From: Azolla caroliniana
Lineage: Eukaryota > Plantae > Polypodiophyta
DNA: 10,316 nucleotides
Assembly (NCBI GenBank): GCA_043228905.1
Contig: JBHGNT010001284.1
Span: 1 to 10,316, forward strand
Reading direction: 5' to 3'
Shown: in pieces, positions 1 through 10,316 of the stretch
Layout: each line of letters starts with the position of its first letter
Numbering within the stretch: the stretch's first letter is position 1
Translations under genes and position numbers: made by a program
Notes under the pieces: generated by a model
What the model saw: the letters and a program-made list of their open reading frames with translations, nothing else
Databases searched by the model: none
Told to the model about the DNA's origin: nothing

Positions 1-143
1 AGATAACGTTAACCATGGAGAAGTTGTTGCAGCTAGTCCCACGCTTCCGCCAAACCATGGAAGAACGGGTGACGGGCATACCCAAGGTGAGCGTTGTTAC
101 GAACCTTACGGACGTGAGTGACGGACCGCCTGTAGTGGATCAC

Positions 144-488
144 CACAACCCGGCTATTACATTGATATTACACGGACAGGAAATTCCTGGATGCGTAATC
201 GATGGCGGCTTAGGCGTTAATGTAATTAGCACGAAAACATGCGAGCAATTAGGCATTTCAGAATGGGAGGCTTGCCCATTCTGGCTCCGAATGGCAGATA
301 CCCGCTTAGTACGACCATTGGGGTTGATTCGCAAGATAGGCATTATCGTGGGCGGACATCGCATCGACATCTCGGCGGTTGTCCTCGCCTTGGACGCCCC
401 AGGGGCATACCCCGTGCTTCTGGGCAGACCGTGGCTTCAGGCAACAAATATCAAGCAGAGCTGGCAACACAAGTGTATCAGTTTCTGA
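144..488 (+). pseudogene. Retropepsin aspartic protease domain
   Basis: CVIDGGLGVNVIS (catalytic Asp codon 201-203), LRMAD flap region and C-terminal VLLGRPWL motif. Confidence 0.88.
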
Positions 489-1065
489 CACAGATGCACT
501 AAGGTTCGCGTACCTACGGAAGGAAGCACGCCACAATCCAAGGGTATAACACCATTATACGCAGAAGATATAAATATGTTGGTTGGGATGGAGGATGCAG
601 AATTAGAGGCATACCTAGATGAGCACCCTCGGATCATTCCGTTGTTCAAAATCAACATCATCGCAACCGCGGCAGAATATGCCACGGCCACTATTCTCCA
701 CGACGAGGCTTACGAACCAAACCTGGAGTCCATATTGGAACTCAGCAGAGCACGGGTGGCATTCGAAAGGGAAATGGAAATTTCACGATGAGTCATCGCC
801 TCCGCCCTGGAAGAAGTAAACGTGGGTATGGAGTCCAAACCCCGTTTCCTCTCCATCACAAAGAAATTAAGGCCGGACCAGAGAAACACGATGATCGAAC
901 TACTCAAGAAATATAAAGATGTGTTCGCTTGGGCTCACAAGGACATGAGGGGTTAGATCCCAAGTTTTATCAACATAAGATCAATTTAGCAACCAACGCA
1001 AAACCCGTCTAGCAACGCCGCTACCGCATGAAACCGAACTACGCGACCCGTTAAACAAACTCCTA

Positions 1066-1605
1066 AATGCGGGTTTCATACGGCCAGTTAAACAAGCCAC
1101 ATAGTTAAGTCCGATAGTAGTCGTTCCAAAGAAAAACGGAAAAATATGGGTATGCGTGGATTACCGAAAATTAAACGTCGCAACCATTACGGACGCATTC
1201 CCTTTACCATTCACCGATAATGTATTGGACGTCGTCGTAGGACATAAGATGTATAGTTTTTTTGATGGCTTCAGTGGGTATAACCAGGTACACATGCATC
1301 CTGATGACCAAGAGAAGACGGCATTTGTCACGGACTGGGGAGTCTATGTGGCAGTCGTCATGATGTTCAGGCTAAAGACGGCGCTAGCAACATTTCAACG
1401 GACAATTACGGAGATCTTTGGGGAATATATTCCGGCATTCATGCAAGTTTTTTTAGACGACTTTGCGGTATATGGGAAAACAATCAACTATTTTACACAT
1501 CTGCAACTGTGCCTGGAACGTTGCCGCACCGCACGCTTAAGCCTGAATCCCACGAAATGTGCCTTCGGTGTGACCAGCGGGACTCTCCTAGGCCATATAG
1601 TCAGC
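1066..1605 (+). pseudogene. Reverse transcriptase domain (Ty3/Gypsy)
   Basis: SPIVVVPKKNGK, CVDYRKLN, FPLP, DGFSGYNQ, KTAF, ATFQR, FLDD (1450-1461), KCAFG, LGHIVS. Confidence 0.96.
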
Positions 1606-1872
1606 AAGGATGGAATAGCGGTCGATCCGAACAAGATCTCTTCGATTACGCAAGCCAAAACTCCGACAAACGCAAAATCAGTCAGCCGGTTTTTAGGACA
1701 AATACGATGGCATAGTCGGATGATACTATATTTGGCGGACTTCGCCACGCCGTTACATGCTATCGTGCATCGGACTCCCTTCCAATGGACCGCAAGGGAG
1801 GACAAGGCCTATGAGGCGCTTAAGATAATGCTCACACAGGCCCCCATCGTACAGCCACCAGTTTGGGCGAAG

Positions 1873-2238
1873 CCATTCCACGTGTTCGTCGACGCCTCGG
1901 ACATAGCAATAGGGAGTGCGCTAATGCATCTCACCGAACCAAACTGGTACCGGCCAATGTACTACGCTAGTCACATATTATCAACAGCAGAGCATAACTA
2001 TTCCACAACGGAGCGGGAGGCGCTAGGGATGATCTATAGCATCAATAAATTCCGGCATTATTACCTGGGGAGGAAATTCACGTTCCACGCGGATCATTCG
2101 GCACTCCTATATTTGGTGGAGAAACAAGCTCTGACAGGTAAATTGGCACGACGGATGCTGCTGGTTCAAGAATTCGATTTTATAATTCAGCACCGACCGG
2201 GGATGCAACACACAGTGGCAGATTTTTTGAGCAGACTC
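1873..2238 (+). pseudogene. Ty3/Gypsy-type RNase H domain
   Basis: PFHVFVDASD, YYAS, NYSTTEREAL, DHSAL, QEFDF, VADFLSRL. Confidence 0.95.
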
Positions 2239-2520
2239 AATAATGGAGAAACAGTACAGAAGGACGACGATGATTTTCCGAACGCCGACATCCTACGGGT
2301 AGCCACACTAGCAGAAAGAACGGAATCGACCTTTCCGGACCGGTGGCTTATGGAAATGACATACTTTTTTACTACAAGACTGCCTCCACCACAATTAAGC
2401 ACGGACAAGAAGAAATGATTAGCCGTCTGAAGCCGTAACTTCTGCCTCGTAGAAGGAATTTTATATCACAAAGGAAGTGATGGCATTTGGCGACACGGGG
2501 TACGTCAGGATGAGAAAGAA

Positions 2521-3652
2521 GCAGTTTTACGGGAGGCTCACTACGGCACGGCAGGCGGCCATTACGCGGGTGATGTTACGCCCGGAAAATATGGCAAGTG
2601 GGCCTATGGTGGCCGACAACACATAAGGACGCATACGAGTATTGTAGAAAGTGTGATTTGTGTCAACGGATGGGCCAGCCCACGGAGGGCGCAAGGATGC
2701 CACACCAACCTGTATTACCGTTAGACCCCTTCCAAAAGTGGGGATTGGATTTTGTGGGCCCCTTCACATCGAAGGCAGCCCGTACGGGCAATAAATACAT
2801 ATTGGTAGCCATGGATTATTGCACCAAGTGGGTAGAAGCAAAGGCACTACGAGAAAATACGGCAGCCGTCACAACGAGATTCCTTTACGAGCACATCTGG
2901 TGCCGGTTCGGCTGTCCGATTGAGCTCATCACTGACCAGGGGAGCCACTTTCTCAATACGGTTGTTCGAGAACTAACACATCATTACGCCGTAGTCCACA
3001 AGAAGAGTATACCATATTATCCACAGGCGAATGGGTTAGCGGAATCCACCAACAAGACGTTGCAGACCATCTTGAAGAAAATCGTCAATGAAAATAGAAC
3101 GGACTGGGATACCAAATTACAGAGTGCGTTATGGGCGTACAGAACCAGCTACAAAACAAGCATATAGTCAACGTTGTTTCGACTAGCGTTTGGACTGGAG
3201 GCCGTGATGCCGGTAGAGTTTCAGATACCCAGTTTACAGATTCAGGTACGGGACCGACTATCAGAAGCCAAGTTGGAGGACGTACGGCTCCACCAGTTAC
3301 TCGAACTCGGCGAAAACGCGTACACAGCATGGTTGTCTTGGAGCAGGAACAACGACGGCGTAAAGCGTTTGTAGATCGACATCGGAATGCATGGGAAAAG
3401 GATTTTGTCGTCGGTCGAGCAGTACTGGTTTTCCAAACCCGCATGGGCCATATGCTCGGGAAGTTACGATTCCGCTGGACATGCCCGTACTGGATAATTG
3501 GAGCAGAACAAGGCACGTTCCAACTAGGTACGTTGGTTGCGGAAGTCTTATGACAAAAGGTGAATGGGTTTTACCTTAAACCTTACCTGGGCCCTACGCC
3601 ACCTAACCCATTCACCGCCGGACAGGACAAAGGAAGAGAACCCGCGGCGTAA
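2521..3652 (+). pseudogene. Integrase (HHCC zinc finger, DD35E core, GPY/F-type C-terminus)
   Basis: H at 2539, GGH at 2560, CDLC; D 2748 (WGLDFVGP), D 2934 (TDQGSHF), E 3042 (GLAESTNK) with exactly 35 residues between D and E; KLRFRWT[C]PY as a mutated GPY motif at ~3482-3490. Confidence 0.95.
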
Positions 3653-3990
3653 GTGGACGGGCCCACTTGTATCATAATGTAAGAATAGGTTGTATGTAAC
3701 CGTTACGAAAAAAAAAAAGAGGAGAAGATAGTGACACTATTAAAGAAAAAGGACTGAATGCATGCACAGACTCCTAGATCAAGAACACGCAGCACCACGA
3801 TGGCTCATCGCCCAATGAACCCTAGGCCATAGAAAGAAGAAAATAGAAGATCTTCTGCACAAAATAGAAACCCACCTCCTAACCCTCAGCGCTCTCATCG
3901 CTCCCTTCCCTCACCTTCTCCTCCATCCTCTCACAAAGCTCCAACCCATTGCAACCACACCAGTCTCCTCCCCACGAGCATAGTTTGGCG

Positions 3991-6717
3991 ATGCCGATCT
4001 TCATCTCTACCGCCTTACGCCAATGGCTCGTGGAGAAACACCTGGATGGGTACATCCGGGTCGCAGAGGCACCTCCACACCCAGATGCCATGGACATCGC
4101 CAGAAAGCTTAATATCGACACGGTCACCAACTCTTCCATCCGGAAAAAGTTGGACCTGTCATCGCTAGGCGAGAGGCATTTCGACATCCCTCCTGCAGAG
4201 GCACTGCAGAGATATTTCGGTCCATATTCCTCCTCCGCCAAGGCCTATAGAACGAAGCAGATCCCGGATCCCTTCTTCCGTGAAGTTGTCAAGTTCCTAT
4301 TAGAGGTCGGATGCGTACACGTCAACGCATATGGGATGCCCAAGCAAAAGGCAGGTATCAATATTGATACCTTTGAAGGGCGTGCGGTCAATTGGGGGGT
4401 CATCACAGGGTCAACGTTAAGGGAAGGCCTGCATGCGTATCAGGGAGGCAAGAAGCTCAGGCCGATCATACAACAGTACCTTACGGTGCTATTCCCACCC
4501 CGAGGCCTGCCGGCACCGAAGCCCAGCAGACCCACGCCTCCGCCCCAATCCGCGAAGCGCAGGTTAGCGGAGTTAGCTGCCCCAGAGTGGGAAGAGGAAC
4601 CCCAACCCGCCCAGCCAGACACACGGACAACGCAGGAAGAACAGCCGGCGCGCTCCGCGGAAGCAGCCCCAGAGCCAGACGCCGAAACACGGTAGGATAG
4701 CCCCAAACCGAAACGGCGGAGGTTGGACCGGAAAGATGGGCGGGGATTAGTCAAAGACGTCCCCACGGCGGCAGAGACAATGACCGAAGGCGATGGCTCC
4801 GTAGCTACGGAGCCCAATACCACCTTTGAAATCATCCGGGAGCCACGGCCGATCATTACGAGCCAGTCACAACGAGGGAAAGCCGTATTGACAGCGGAAA
4901 GCGAGGTTTTGGCATATCCAGATATCCCGGACACGGCCCATGAGTTCAACGCCCTCTTGCAGTTCGAAAACTCTTTTGAGCTCATGGAATTCCTGGCAAC
5001 GCAACAGATAAAGGCCTCACAACGAATGGTAGAGGAGCACGCGGAGCGCTAGATGATCGAGCGCGCCCTAACACAAACGACGGAGAGCGACAATGCGGAC
5101 CAGCTAGCCAGGGTCGGCAGATAGAGGAACGCCGGTGTACGTCGAGTGGGGATGGAGCTACCCCCATTAAACACGGCCCTAGTCAAAGTCCATAGGGAAC
5201 TAGCAAAGGTCAGCACGAGCACCAAGGAGATGGCCATTAAAAATAAGAATGTCTGGAAGAAGGTGAAACTGACCCAAGCCAAGCTGCAAAAAGCCAACGA
5301 ACGCATCGCGGAGTTGGAAACTAACGCGACTATGGCGCAACAGGCAACTCCGCCACCAACCCACACCATCGACGCTTTGAAGGAAGAAATTGAGGCTCAG
5401 ACCACCATCGCCTCAAAAGCAAAAAGGGTCGTACAACTAGCAGAATCAAAAATTGACCACCTTCGCGCTGAACTTCACCAATCCTCAGACAAGGAAAAGG
5501 ATATCTGGGCTAACGACCGGAAGGCAGTAAAAACCCTTGAAGAGAAACTCGTTGTGGAGGCAGCTCAGCACACCCGAACAAAAGAAGAAAACGCCCAATT
5601 ACAGGAGGAAGCGAAGAAGTCGGAGGCGGCAATCGTGGGACTCCGGGCCTTATTGGAGAAAAAGAAGGTATGGTTCGACAAGCAGCTGGTGGGCTAACAG
5701 GAAAGAAGGCATCAACTCGAAATCCGCCTAAACAATGAAATGGGGAAACTAGAAGAACTCCATGCGAAGGAAGCCTAGTTGTGGGCGGGCATGAAGAGCA
5801 CGTACGAAGAAGCGGCGGCAGTTAGCCAGCAAGAAATTGCAAACCTCAAGAAGGCGGTAGAAGAAGCAGGCAACCGCTGCCAGGCCATCACAGACAACGT
5901 GCATATCCTTCTCCAAACGAATCGGGAGAGGTTCACAGCGCAATTGAAAATGGCGCTAGACAAAGGATGGATGGCGTGGGCAGCCCAAGCGGCGGAATTG
6001 CACGCGTATCATGCGGACTGGGAGAACAAGCAAAAAGACGTCTGAGGCTTCTATAAACTCAATGAGGAGAGCATTGCGGCAGTACGCGAGGACCTAGCGC
6101 AGGACTATCGCGTGCTAGCAGACCAGCATTCCGAAGAACTCGCGCAGCTATTAGACGATTTTGGGGAAAGCCAAGAGGACCTGTTTCACCATATCACACA
6201 AACCGACAGCACGCGAACAAATGAGGAATCCGTCGCGCCACCAATTCTAGACACTACCGAAGAAGAGAAACCTCAGGCCAGGTCACCAGACATTACAACT
6301 ACGGTGAACAGCGCAGCGGGGTCCCCCACATTACCAGACAGCGACACCACAGCCCAAGAGGAACCCCATCTACCGGAGCATACGCTAGCGGCCGACCACA
6401 CGGAGAACGTTGCGGACCAAGCGGAACCACAACCCCACTCCCCAGAGCGTACAACAACGGCCGACACCACGGAGCAAGTGACGGAGGAGATAGCGCCGCG
6501 ACCGACCGCAAGCCTGCCGACGGCTGAGCTCAACCCCATAGCCCAAGAAGAGCCCATAGAACCCGGACCGCCCACACAGGACGATCGTGACACCAGGAGA
6601 AGCCCTCCCGACCACACAGGGGAACCACACCACGATGCACCTACAGGCTCTACGTCGTCCACAAACGCGGACACCGTAGCAGAGCCAAACATCCGGGACA
6701 TTTTGGAAGAAGATTAA
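3991..6717 (+). pseudogene. Extra sense ORF downstream of pol; ~908-aa coiled-coil protein of unknown function, six internal stops
   Basis: Track ORFs starting 3949, 4723, 5146, 5779 and 6112 are all in frame 1. Reading the gaps shows no frameshift, only stops at 4693, 5050, 5122, 5695, 5776 and 6043. First in-frame ATG is 3991 (gcgATGc); the frame is open from 3883. Confidence 0.88.
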
Positions 6718-6731
6718 TGGGATGGGTCCGA
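6705..6731 (+). other. Candidate polypurine tract of the Gypsy element
   Basis: GGAAGAAGATTAATGGGATGGG(TCCGA), preceded by TTTT and followed by TGT; imperfect purine tract. Confidence 0.5.
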
Positions 6732-7211
6732 TGTGCCATGGCACTGTCCCACAGGCGTGCCAGGTGTTGTCTGCTGGAATAGTAACCAACGGACAAGAGT
6801 GCAGGAATAGGAAATAGTATAAGATTGTAACGCATGTAACGGTTCACGCGGGAAGCGTGAACGGCTAAAAGACCCTACGTATATAAAGGGCAAAAAACCT
6901 CTAATAGAGGTAGCCTGTAATTTTGGAATGTAAAGAAGCGTATCGTAATAGAATTCTATCTTCTCTGATATCTATGTATAGCTACGGCTAATCTACTATG
7001 TGTTTGGAATACCTGAGAGTGTAGAAGTAAGAAATGTGAGCATGTAGCCACTATTAAGGAGTTCGGTTGTAGCCGTCTCCCTTATACGCTGCTAGGTTAC
7101 GGGGAACATCCCCCTACGTGTTACGCACAAACGTCACCGTTCGTTGTCTCACGGTCACTTGGAGGTCTAGGTCGAAGGACTGACCGCAGACCGTGTTCCT
7201 AATCGGCAACA
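6732..7211 (+). repeat. 3' LTR of the Gypsy element (alternative 5' end at 6765)
   Basis: Ends GGCAACA (7205-7211) at the compositional junction. Its reverse complement TGTTGCC resembles both TGTGCC (6732) and TGTTGTC (6765). Internal TATATAAA and TGTA-rich tract. The partner LTR is not in the window. Confidence 0.75.
6880..6887 (+). promoter_or_regulatory. TATA box of the LTR promoter
   Basis: TATATAAA followed by GGG, in the position expected for U3 of the LTR. Confidence 0.6.
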
Positions 7212-8869
7212 ATGATGTAACTGATGATGATGATGATGAGCAAAATAATGATCATTGTATTCCAAGTGACGAGATTGATGACATTCTAGCAGTTCCACCA
7301 CAAGAGGAAGAGATTAGATGGTCTATGAGACAAAGACAACCTTCTATTAGATATAGTCCACATGAATATGTGATGCTCACAAATGGGGGAGGGCCAAAAA
7401 GATTTAGAGAAGTTATGGCACATGATCAAAAGAGAAATGGTTTGAGGCCATGACAGATGACATGAAGTCCTTGCAAGATAATCACATTTATGACTTAGCA
7501 AAAGTTTCCTAGCAAGATAGCGTTGAAGAACAAATGGGTTTACAGGCTAAAGACCGAGGAACATTGCTCACAACCAAGATACAAGGTAAGATTGGTTGTG
7601 AAGGGATTCAATCAAAAAAAGGGTGTTGATTTTGAGGAGATGTTTTCACCCGTGGTGAAGATGTCCTCAAATAGAGTTGTACTTGGGATTGCAGGTAGTC
7701 TCAATTTAGAAATTGAACAAGTTGATGTAAAAATCACCTTCTTTCATGGTGATTTGGAAGAAGAAATTGACATGGAATAACCTAAGGGGTTTGAAACCAA
7801 AGGAAAAGAAAACAAGATCCTAGACTTTGGTACAAAAAATTTGACTCGTTCATGTTAGACCACAGGTATAACAAGACTAACTCAGATCATTGTGTTCTTT
7901 AAGAAATTCTCCAATGGTGATCTCATCATTCTACTCTTGTATGTAGATGATATGTTGATCGTTGGTCAAGATACCAACCAGATTGAGAAATTGAAGAGAG
8001 AACTTAGCAAGTCTTTTGCTATGAAGGACTTGGGAAAAGCTAAGCAAATCCTTGGGATGAAGATAACCAGGATAGAGCAAGTAAAAAACTTTGGTTGTCT
8101 TAAGAAAAATATATTGAGATTTAACATGGCTAAGTGTAAGGCAATCAACACTCCACTCGCAAGCCACTTTAAAGTCACTCCGAATAGTGCCCTACAAGTG
8201 AGGAAGAACATGAAGAAATGAAACAAATATCACATGCTTTTGCAGTTGGTAGTTTGATGTATGTTATGGTTTGCATGAGGCTTGAGATTGCTCATGCAAT
8301 TGGTGTTGTAAGTCATTTTCTCTCAAATACTAGCAAAGATCATTATCTTAGAGGCACTTTGAGAGTTTGTCTAAATTTCATTCATAACCAAACTATGTTA
8401 GATGGGTATACAGATGCAGACATGGCTAATGACATTGACTCTAGAAAATCCACATTAGGGTATTTAATGATCTTTGTAGGGGGAATTGTCTCTTGGCAAT
8501 TGAGACTTCAAAAATGTGGGGCATTATGCACAACAAAGGTTGAGTATATTTTTGCCACAGAAGCTTGTAAAGAGATGTTATGGTTGAAGAGATTCCTACA
8601 TGAGTTGGGGTTGGTGTGAGAAAGGTATAAGCTTCATTGTGATAGTCAAAGTGCTATACATTTATGCAAGAACTCTTCCTTTCATTTTTAAGTCTGAACA
8701 TATTAATGTTAGATACCATTGGATTTAAGATGCGTTTGAAGAAAATCAAATGCACATTGAGAAGGTTCATACCAATGAGAATGGCTTCGACATGATGGCA
8801 AAGTGTTTGCAAAGAGAGAAGCTTGAAGCTTGCAAACAAAAAGCACGTTTGATTGTGCCCCCTACTTGA
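7212..8869 (+). pseudogene. pol: Copia pol remnant: linker, RT, RNase H
   Basis: RQPSIRYSPHEYV, KNKWVYRLK, RYKVRLVVKGFNQKKGVDFEEMFSPVVKM, EQVDVK, HGDLEEEI, LLLYVDDMLI (YVDD 7940-7951), FAMKDLG, VGSLMY, GYTDADMA..DSRKST, CDSQSAIHL, HINVRYHWI; stop TGA 8867-8869; many frameshifts and small deletions. Confidence 0.94.
7222..7239 (+). repeat. (TGA)6 microsatellite encoding poly-Asp in the Copia linker
   Basis: tgatgatgatgatgatga read directly. Confidence 0.85.
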
Positions 8870-8885
8870 GATAGAGGGGTAGAAT
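8868..8885 (+). other. Copia polypurine tract
   Basis: GAGATAGAGGGGTAGAAT directly after the pol stop and directly before TGT; resembles the Copia GAGGGGGAGA(A/T)T-TG pattern. Confidence 0.75.
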
Positions 8886-8994
8886 TGTGGGGGGGGTGGG
8901 GGGGTTTCCACTCAAGTGGAACCAACAATTAAAAGGCAATAAGTAAAAAGGTTGCGGCTATTTGTGGAATTGTTGCACTACCTTTTACTTATTG
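8886..8994 (+). repeat. 5' remnant of the Copia 3' LTR
   Basis: Starts TGT after the PPT and contains two inverted repeats; sequence character changes at ~8995. Confidence 0.55.
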
Positions 8995-9381
8995 TTCATA
9001 TGCGGTTTAATAGGTTCAGTTCAGGTTCAGGTTTTTTTAACAGTTCGGTTCGGTTTCAAACATTAGAAACCACGGTTTAAATGGTTTAATGGTTTTTTTT
9101 TAATTGGTTTTAAACAATCTTTTCATTGTTAGACCTTATTTTCACATTTTAGAAACATCTTTAAATTTTAAAAAATTTAAAATAATGAAATGTTTAAAAT
9201 TTTAAATTTTAAATTTTGACACAAGTTGAAAACCAAAACCGAACCACGAACTGTAGTTTTAATGGTTTGAAACTTTTTTACCAATTCGGTTTAACGATTT
9301 CTTGGTTTGATTCGGTTTGGTTCAAGTTTCAAAATTTTTAAACAGTTCGGTTTTGACCCTCTCGAATAGAACCGAACTGTT
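8995..9381. mobile_element. Degenerate non-autonomous DNA transposon/MITE-like segment (hAT-like subterminal motifs)
   Basis: Many GGTTC/CGGTT/AACCG motifs at both ends around an AT-only core; TTTTGACCCT at 9351-9360 resembles a hAT-MITE terminus. No clear TIR pair or TSD found. Confidence 0.5.
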
Positions 9382-9467
9382 GCTGATTGTTATATGCCAT
9401 TACGGAGGGGTAGAGTAAGCAAACAGAAGAAACAAAAACCCTTTTCTCTTTTTCGCTCAGAAAAATC

Positions 9468-9521
9468 AAAAAATTTGACAGAGTGAAAACAACATGAATA
9501 AAAAATTTGATAGAGGGAAAA
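9468..9521. repeat. Imperfect direct repeat, 22 bp x2, 32-bp period
   Basis: aaaaaatttgacagagtgaaaa (9468-9489) vs aaaaaatttgatagagggaaaa (9500-9521), 20/22 identical. Confidence 0.7.
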
Positions 9522-9523
9522 AT

Positions 9524-9542
9524 AGAGAGGGAGAGAGAGAGA
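9524..9542. repeat. (GA)n/(CT)n tract
   Basis: agagagggagagagagaga read directly. Confidence 0.8.
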
Positions 9543-10316
9543 TCAAAAAGGGCACACGGGATAGAAGTGAAGGAAGCTTGAGACACTACTGATTTCAACG
9601 AGCACCATAGCCCACTTCTATTATATGTGCAAGAGTTCTTTTCTCCATCAATTTCACGCACTACTCACATATAAGCAAATCTTCCTGCCTTCCTCTTAGA
9701 GCTACATCATGGTAGAAGCAAGACAGCAAGAAAAAGGTATTGACAGTGGTCTGTTTTGATGTAATTGGAAGACCTGCCCCAAACATCCACCAATGCCGAT
9801 ATCCTTTGCTTCTAGATGTATGGTGAAATTGTTTTCAGTTGAAACCAAGTTTGTTGTAAAGTGAAAAAAAATTGTATCTTCACATTTTCAATCATTTTGT
9901 AAGACTAGCATGCCCTAAATGCAATAGGGTTTTCTTTGTAATTTCATTCCCATATATAATGTACAGAAATTAAGGGAAAATGAAACAATTTCATTTCGTT
10001 GTGTGCGTTTGTCAATTAGTTTTTTGACAGCCTTTTTCCCAAACACTTGGAACCATGTACCATATAGAATCATTCTTGCACAGATGTTACAGATGTCATG
10101 TTGCAACAAGCAGACAATAGATTTCTTTGCACATCGTATGTGCTTTGATTATTGAAATTCAATTATCAATTGTCAAAGATCAACGATAGACCATTCTGTC
10201 CCCCAACCCACCTTTCTAAACAGTTGCATGCCCCAACCTTTTCAAAAAAAAAATTGAAGGCATAATTTCAAGGTCTCGTCACTTCGGTGAATCACTTGAG
10301 CCCCGAGACATTTCGT

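Follow-up and report, generated by a model that had tools for sequence, protein, structure and literature searches.

A conserved accessory gene between pol and the 3′ long terminal repeat of a Ty3/Gypsy retrotransposon family in Azolla caroliniana, with a predicted VANC21-like N-terminal domain

The 10,316-nt stretch of Azolla caroliniana DNA analysed here (contig JBHGNT010001284.1, positions 1 to 10,316; hereafter the window) carries the 3′ two thirds of a Ty3/Gypsy retrotransposon on the + strand, and gag and the 5′ long terminal repeat (LTR) lie outside it. The order protease (PR), reverse transcriptase (RT), RNase H (RH) and integrase (INT), an LTR with TG...CA ends and a primer binding site (PBS) identify the element as Ty3/Gypsy. 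Between pol and the 3′ LTR lies an accessory gene, an extra open reading frame (ORF) in sense orientation, which is the subject of this report. The features of the element are as follows.

3..488, + strand: aspartic protease region of pol (weak Pfam gag-asp_proteas match, E 0.033); the window starts inside the polyprotein
1105..2418, + strand: RT and RNase H in Ty3/Gypsy order (RVT_1, E 4.9e-17; RT_RNaseH, E 1.7e-27)
2431..~3652, + strand: integrase, end approximate (rve, E 2.4e-14; Integrase_H2C2, E 2.5e-4)
3653..3990, + strand: pol-to-gene spacer with a conserved 7-mer, an A/G run, a TATA-like A/T motif and a C/T-rich leader (by eye)
3699..3705, − strand: TAACGGT in the spacer, candidate cis site (chosen by eye, post hoc)
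3991..6717, + strand: accessory gene, 908 codons with six in-frame stops (frame 1; intact homologues)
3991..4506, + strand: N-terminal globular domain (N-domain), predicted VANC21/DUF1985/PMD-like fold
4507..4920, + strand: disordered Pro/Glu linker with basic motifs KRR (4555-4563) and KRRR (4711-4722); predicted local distance difference test (pLDDT) <50 in a homologue model
4921..6210, + strand: helical region with an amphipathic helix pair, long coiled-coil-like helices and a W-x-x-QAAEL...GF(Y/F)K module near 5950-6060 (alignments, P0006 model)
6211..6714, + strand: acidic Pro/Thr disordered tail and short conserved end motif (6691-6714; alignments, model)
6744..6764, + strand: motif complementary to the family PBS core, at the expected polypurine tract (PPT) site (14 loci and the window, before TGTTG)
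6765..7211, + strand: 3′ LTR, 447 bp, TGTTG...CAACA (contig match starts, loose ends, termini in related loci)
6837-6843: TAACGGT, LTR copy, ahead of a TATA-like box

The accessory frame runs from ATG 3991 to TAA 6715-6717 without a frameshift. Stops at codons 235, 354, 378, 569, 596 and 685 divide it into pieces of 234, 118, 23, 190, 26, 88 and 223 residues, and the five ORFs that the initial annotation had joined into one frame over 2.7 kb are the long ones among these seven. Against six stops in the accessory frame, the other two + frames of the region contain 39 and 25, and over 2000 base shuffles the count averaged 33.7 and never fell below 18. Of the 216 aligned cases at the six stop positions in related loci, 199 had a sense codon, 16 a gap and one a stop; the stops are therefore due to decay of the window copy. 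The N-domain segment has none. In pol, the integrase pieces lie in different frames, and the stops and frameshifts that interrupt it indicate that the window copy is dead. The accessory frame had also been thought to run up to the PPT, which was not the case: it ends 47 nt before the LTR, and no purine tract adjoins the LTR (10 purines in the last 20 nt). Translation start at ATG 3991 is uncertain. Met at position 1 is conserved in 87% of alignment rows, and the frame is also open 5′ of this ATG (3883-3990); several homologues (P0007, P0010, P0020, P0030 and P0194-P0200) have in-frame extensions of 70-100 residues with an earlier ATG, which differ between subfamilies.

Seven homologues of 538-872 residues were matched at E≤1.8e-165, and seven further ones shared 44-47% identity in the N-domain. 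The N-domain was matched by 238 clusters at E≤0.001, including a 1072-residue protein at 36-37%. All 14 long homologues lack a name, and judged by these matches the accessory protein belongs to a family without a name in any sequence library. Among related stretches in metagenome contigs, 80 of 94 were taken. Eight loci picked for intactness were stop-free over 803-889 codons, and in 25 of the 35 loci with 900 bp of flank the gene directly followed integrase on the same strand. The ratio of nonsynonymous to synonymous substitutions (dN/dS, Nei-Gojobori counting) for the N-domain was 0.011-0.030 in the six pairs with dS 0.73-1.54; for two near-identical pairs it was 0.11 and 0, and one pair was saturated. 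The rest of the accessory protein gave 0.15-0.33, and RT and integrase 0.023-0.041. All these values come from metagenome contigs, which may combine sequence from many copies. The accessory gene is under strong purifying selection. Stop-free relatives and N-domain ratios far from 1 bear out the initial annotation, which had read the interrupted frame as a gene. Identity of the window to the L006 group and to the L020/L032 group was 77 and 65% in the N-domain, 82 and 76% in RT and 89 and 83% in integrase, and this same order of closeness fits inheritance of the accessory gene with the element. In four pairs (L006/L009, L006/L007, L006/L010 and L020/L023) N-domain dS exceeded that of the remaining gene by a factor of 1.7-3.3, through recombination between subfamilies or mosaic assembly. 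The family is abundant: public sequencing runs (four runs, at most three studies) held 8,556-13,910 contig pieces per run on 3700-7300, mostly 90-99% alike, a depth that is no measure of copy number.

A globular N-domain of about 170 residues, a Pro/Glu linker with basic motifs, helices and an acidic Pro/Thr tail had been proposed, and this architecture was recovered. The folded part comprises residues 1-172, with residues 7-26 forming helices of the folded domain. In the model of P0006, an intact homologue (mean pLDDT 61.5, predicted template modelling score 0.27), the folded N-domain is accompanied by disorder at 188-303 and 737-872 and a near-continuous helix at 307-735, whose ~430 residues matched generic coiled coils only. 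Five parts are kept in alignments down to 27-31% identity, namely the 172-residue N-domain, the linker basic motifs, the amphipathic helix pair (residues near 315-345), the W-x-x-QAAEL...GF(Y/F)K module, which closes the helical region, and the end motif. The basic motifs (KRR at residue 189, KRRR at 241) had counterparts in 8/8 homologues scanned and are likely nuclear localisation signals. The end motif, I-L/F-D-I-L/F followed by acidic residues, lies at or near the C terminus in 8/8 homologues scanned, down to the same overall identity, and forms a short terminal helix in the P0006 model; the acidic tail ahead of it is otherwise not conserved. We take the end motif to have the look of a short docking motif, of SUMO-interacting or activation type. 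About 70 residues (codons 355-430) occur in the window, the L020/L032 group and P0194-P0200 and are absent in frame from the L006 group.

The predicted N-domain fold aligned with residues 305-528 of VANC21 (PDB 9lnk) over 163 residues at 7% identity, the N-domain being ~50 residues shorter over the aligned span. The VANC21 structure is reportedly the work of Tanaka et al. in 2026 (10.1266/ggs.25-00096). DUF1985 (PF09331) gave no match at E≤1 among the matches listed (25 of 46 families in one scan), nor at E≤10 for seven diverse homologues. PF10536 (PMD) and PF03078 (ATHILA ORF-1) were likewise unmatched in the same Pfam scans of the window protein and homologues, as was PF04195 (TRP28) here. 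An Atlas lead pointed to PMD (PF10536; 0.82, 20% of members). The accessory protein is likely a remote PMD/VANC-fold protein.

Two related loci, L031 and L032, encode gag, a zinc knuckle, PR, RT, RH and INT in one ORF, and the window protease region is 64% identical to theirs. Pfam scans of three intact polyproteins (E≤0.01) found no second RNase H and no chromodomain; Tat elements and chromoviruses are therefore excluded, and an Athila-like or unnamed non-chromovirus branch remains. For the Tat clade (TatI-III, Ogre, Retand), the ground was the single RNase H region of these polyproteins. The best RT matches bore no name; the first named ones at ≥90% query cover belong to Riccia, Adiantum and a conifer-type record, with 39-45% identity, and this list points to a non-flowering-plant type of lineage. 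The literature searched describes no PMD/VANC-fold protein in a post-pol position on such a lineage.

Like Athila, the window element has a 3′ sense extra ORF and no extra RNase H or chromodomain, and position, orientation and element type agree with the Athila env-like ORF (PMC6317226; PMC7264820). The window family differs from Athila in lacking a PF03078 match and a transmembrane stretch, in its short LTRs (420-536 bp) and in an RT only 39-45% identical to its nearest full-length named relatives (liverwort, fern, conifer-type record). PF03078 is found in only 16% of Athila elements, and its absence does not exclude Athila. Phygy and Selgy, from non-seed plants, are also non-chromovirus elements that lack an extra RNase H, but REXdb lists them, like TatI, without an extra ORF in any position, whereas the window element carries one (PMC6317226). 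The same source restricts PMD matches to Ogre and ATHILA ORF-1 to the sense ORF at the 3′ end of Athila. Extra ORFs of PMD or PMD-coiled-coil type occur in Tat III-V elements and were first seen in gymnosperms (PMC4408406). These Tat/Ogre ORFs share with the window gene the layout of a globular domain followed by a coiled coil on a Gypsy element, and are likely of the same fold group; theirs are 3′ antisense or 5′ sense, match PF10536 and accompany an extra RNase H, whereas the window gene is sense after pol, without either. Retand elements likewise have a long region between pol and LTR, where TRP28 (PF04195) and Smc-like ORFs encode a conserved globular domain with predicted DNA binding and a coiled coil (PMC11963269), but these ORFs are antisense, confined to flowering plants and match PF04195, none of which holds here. 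Reviews leave the function of such extra ORFs open (PMC7264820).

VANC21 of VANDAL21 binds a 9-base motif in the non-coding parts of that element, its targets being tandem repeats, and causes loss of DNA methylation (PMC5735166). A coiled coil is predicted to mediate its dimerisation; VANC resembles MAIN in structure, has been called dicot-specific and has been proposed to derive from a captured MAIN (PMC13547354). The PMD-C domain of MAIL1, MAIN and MAIL2 resembles the DUF1985 of VANC, and these proteins counter Polycomb at short motifs (10.1101/2024.09.27.615353). Like VANC21, the window protein is transposon-encoded, has a coiled-coil part and aligns in predicted fold; unlike it, it belongs to an LTR retrotransposon rather than an Arabidopsis MuDR-type DNA transposon, shares 7% identity without a DUF1985 match, and shows no tandem target arrays. 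MAIN, MAIL1 and MAIL2, reported structural kin of VANC acting at short DNA motifs against Polycomb silencing, are host genes without a sequence match to the present family, whose members lie after integrase (25/35 loci).

The spacer motifs have the same order by eye in the window, L006, L020 and L032, and 3653..3990 is a candidate internal promoter. TAACGGT occurs once in the spacer and once in the LTR in 5/5 elements from three subfamilies, and once in 28,078 coding bases. Its reverse complement ACCGTTA was present 200-470 nt ahead of the ATG in 25 of the 47 loci with that much flank, and the related words GT(A/G)AC(C/G)G number 2-6 per LTR against 0.3-0.5 in shuffles. Conservation of the 7-mer across saturated dS is a better argument than enrichment. 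A purine run (3706-3730) follows the spacer 7-mer in all subfamilies and could be an internal PPT. In L012, L016, L019 and L023 homology is lost near this run and unrelated DNA follows, of which the plain reading is homopolymer assembly breaks.

We tentatively favour, at somewhat less than an even chance, the following reading: this conserved gene of a high-copy Ty3/Gypsy family encodes a nuclear protein of VANC21/PMD-type fold that binds the element's own non-coding DNA and counters host silencing. The gene would be transcribed from the internal promoter in the spacer and its product imported into the nucleus via the basic motifs. The N-domain would bind DNA, perhaps through conserved K84, K118, K120, R144, K154, Y79, Y86 and H110, at a short motif in LTR and spacer, for which TAACGGT is the candidate. 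The coiled coil would self-associate or multimerise, and the acidic-hydrophobic end motif would recruit a host chromatin factor, whereby silencing is lifted. The initial annotation had suggested a nuclear scaffold or regulator, for example VANC-like anti-silencing. It is supported in part; the gene, its conservation and the lack of a membrane anchor are shown, the fold is predicted, and the nuclear, DNA-binding and silencing steps we infer. That the system is sequence-specific, binding TAACGGT-type sites in LTR and internal promoter of a non-flowering-plant Gypsy element to strip silencing, is a narrower claim that we regard as doubtful. Several caveats apply to this motif: the 7-mer and related words were chosen by eye in the same sequences, which makes their enrichment post hoc; these motifs also resemble host MYB sites; and the element within the window contains no tandem array, only short dispersed motifs in U3.

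A single conserved 7-mer just upstream of TATA-like boxes in LTR and spacer, in place of tandem arrays, would also suit an ordinary trans-regulator with the same fold and DNA binding, raising or damping transcription from the LTR and internal promoter (autoregulation, copy-number control) and leaving silencing marks unreversed. The acidic tail and end motif could serve it as an activation domain, a regulatory role has been proposed for the Retand TRP28 proteins (PMC11963269), and MAIN and MAIL1 were first found as silencing factors (PMC5418596). Both tested proteins of the fold group, however, oppose silencing marks, VANC DNA methylation and MAIL1/MAIN/MAIL2 Polycomb, and we consider this alternative rather unlikely. 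A tether or scaffold in the replication cycle, with the N-domain gripping cDNA or target chromatin and the coiled coil linking to integrase, Gag or nuclear import machinery, would account for ~430 helical residues, for N-domain constraint equal to that of RT and integrase, which suggests a core role, and for an element lacking a chromodomain. ATLANTYS extra proteins with globular and long-helix parts resemble the axis protein ASY2, and nuclear import of the pre-integration complex has been proposed for such ORFs (PMC7264820). The coiled-coil matches are generic, though, and Phygy and Selgy move without any extra ORF; we hold this role to be unlikely.

It is quite improbable that the VANC21 match is a chance likeness of small helical domains, the true fold being unrelated and most likely a module that binds protein or RNA and acts on element RNA or in PPT-less 3′-end priming. 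Three run contigs carry 152-333 unrelated letters and match only from the LTR start (6765) onward, loose ends gather at the LTR end (7211) in 4/4 runs, and 10 related loci have the same TGTTG...AACA termini with LTRs of 420-536 bp. In 14 loci and the window, the conserved motif that is the reverse complement of the PBS core stops 2 nt short of the LTR; coverage in public runs peaks at 6744-6771. This motif could allow plus-strand priming by a tRNA, or could pair with the PBS. Cell-to-cell spread by an Env-like membrane protein would fit the position and orientation, which are those of env and the Athila 3′ ORF. The usual hydropathy cut-off for a transmembrane helix is ~1.6; the highest 19-residue Kyte-Doolittle mean was 1.04 in the window protein and 0.87-1.31 in eight homologues. 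The lack of a membrane-length hydrophobic run noted in the initial annotation thus extends to 9/9 proteins, and with it the description of a gene in the env position that is unlike Env. As no value exceeds 1.31, such a protein is very unlikely; moreover, the nine proteins have 1-7 cysteines each, all carry basic motifs, and the N terminus belongs to the folded domain. We give the Env-like alternative hardly any weight.

What the extra ORFs of plant retrotransposons do has been an open question for more than 20 years, and those after pol are often called env-like. The present family offers a compact, well-folded 172-residue domain, hundreds of natural variants and a short candidate site, making binding and anti-silencing directly testable, and a predicted structural link to VANC21, the one transposon accessory protein for which a DNA complex has been solved. 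Angiosperm Gypsy elements encode the PMD-A clades, and whether PMD arose on Gypsy elements or as a host gene is left open in the source (PMC5418596); a divergent member carried by an early-branching Gypsy lineage is relevant to this question and to the proposed descent of VANC from MAIN. If true, the narrower, sequence-specific anti-silencing reading would provide the first anti-silencing protein of an LTR retrotransposon and a function for plant env-position genes. It would also mean that retrotransposons carried the PMD/VANC fold earlier than angiosperm MAIN and dicot VANC, and the proposed host-to-transposon capture would be reversed.

Beyond the 3′ LTR the window contains one further feature.

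7212..8880, + strand: flank, degraded Ty1/Copia RT-RNase H remnant, end approximate (RVT_2, E 2.8e-21 and 4.4e-16)

GC falls to 0.35-0.40 in this flank, and the Gypsy element inserted into the Copia remnant. An AT-rich stretch at 9020-9360 has imperfect direct and inverted repeats and is possibly a small DNA-transposon relic. The related locus L006 has another Gypsy element at 7741-12368 on the minus strand, which is unrelated (RT 33% identical) and is arranged tail to tail with the family relative.
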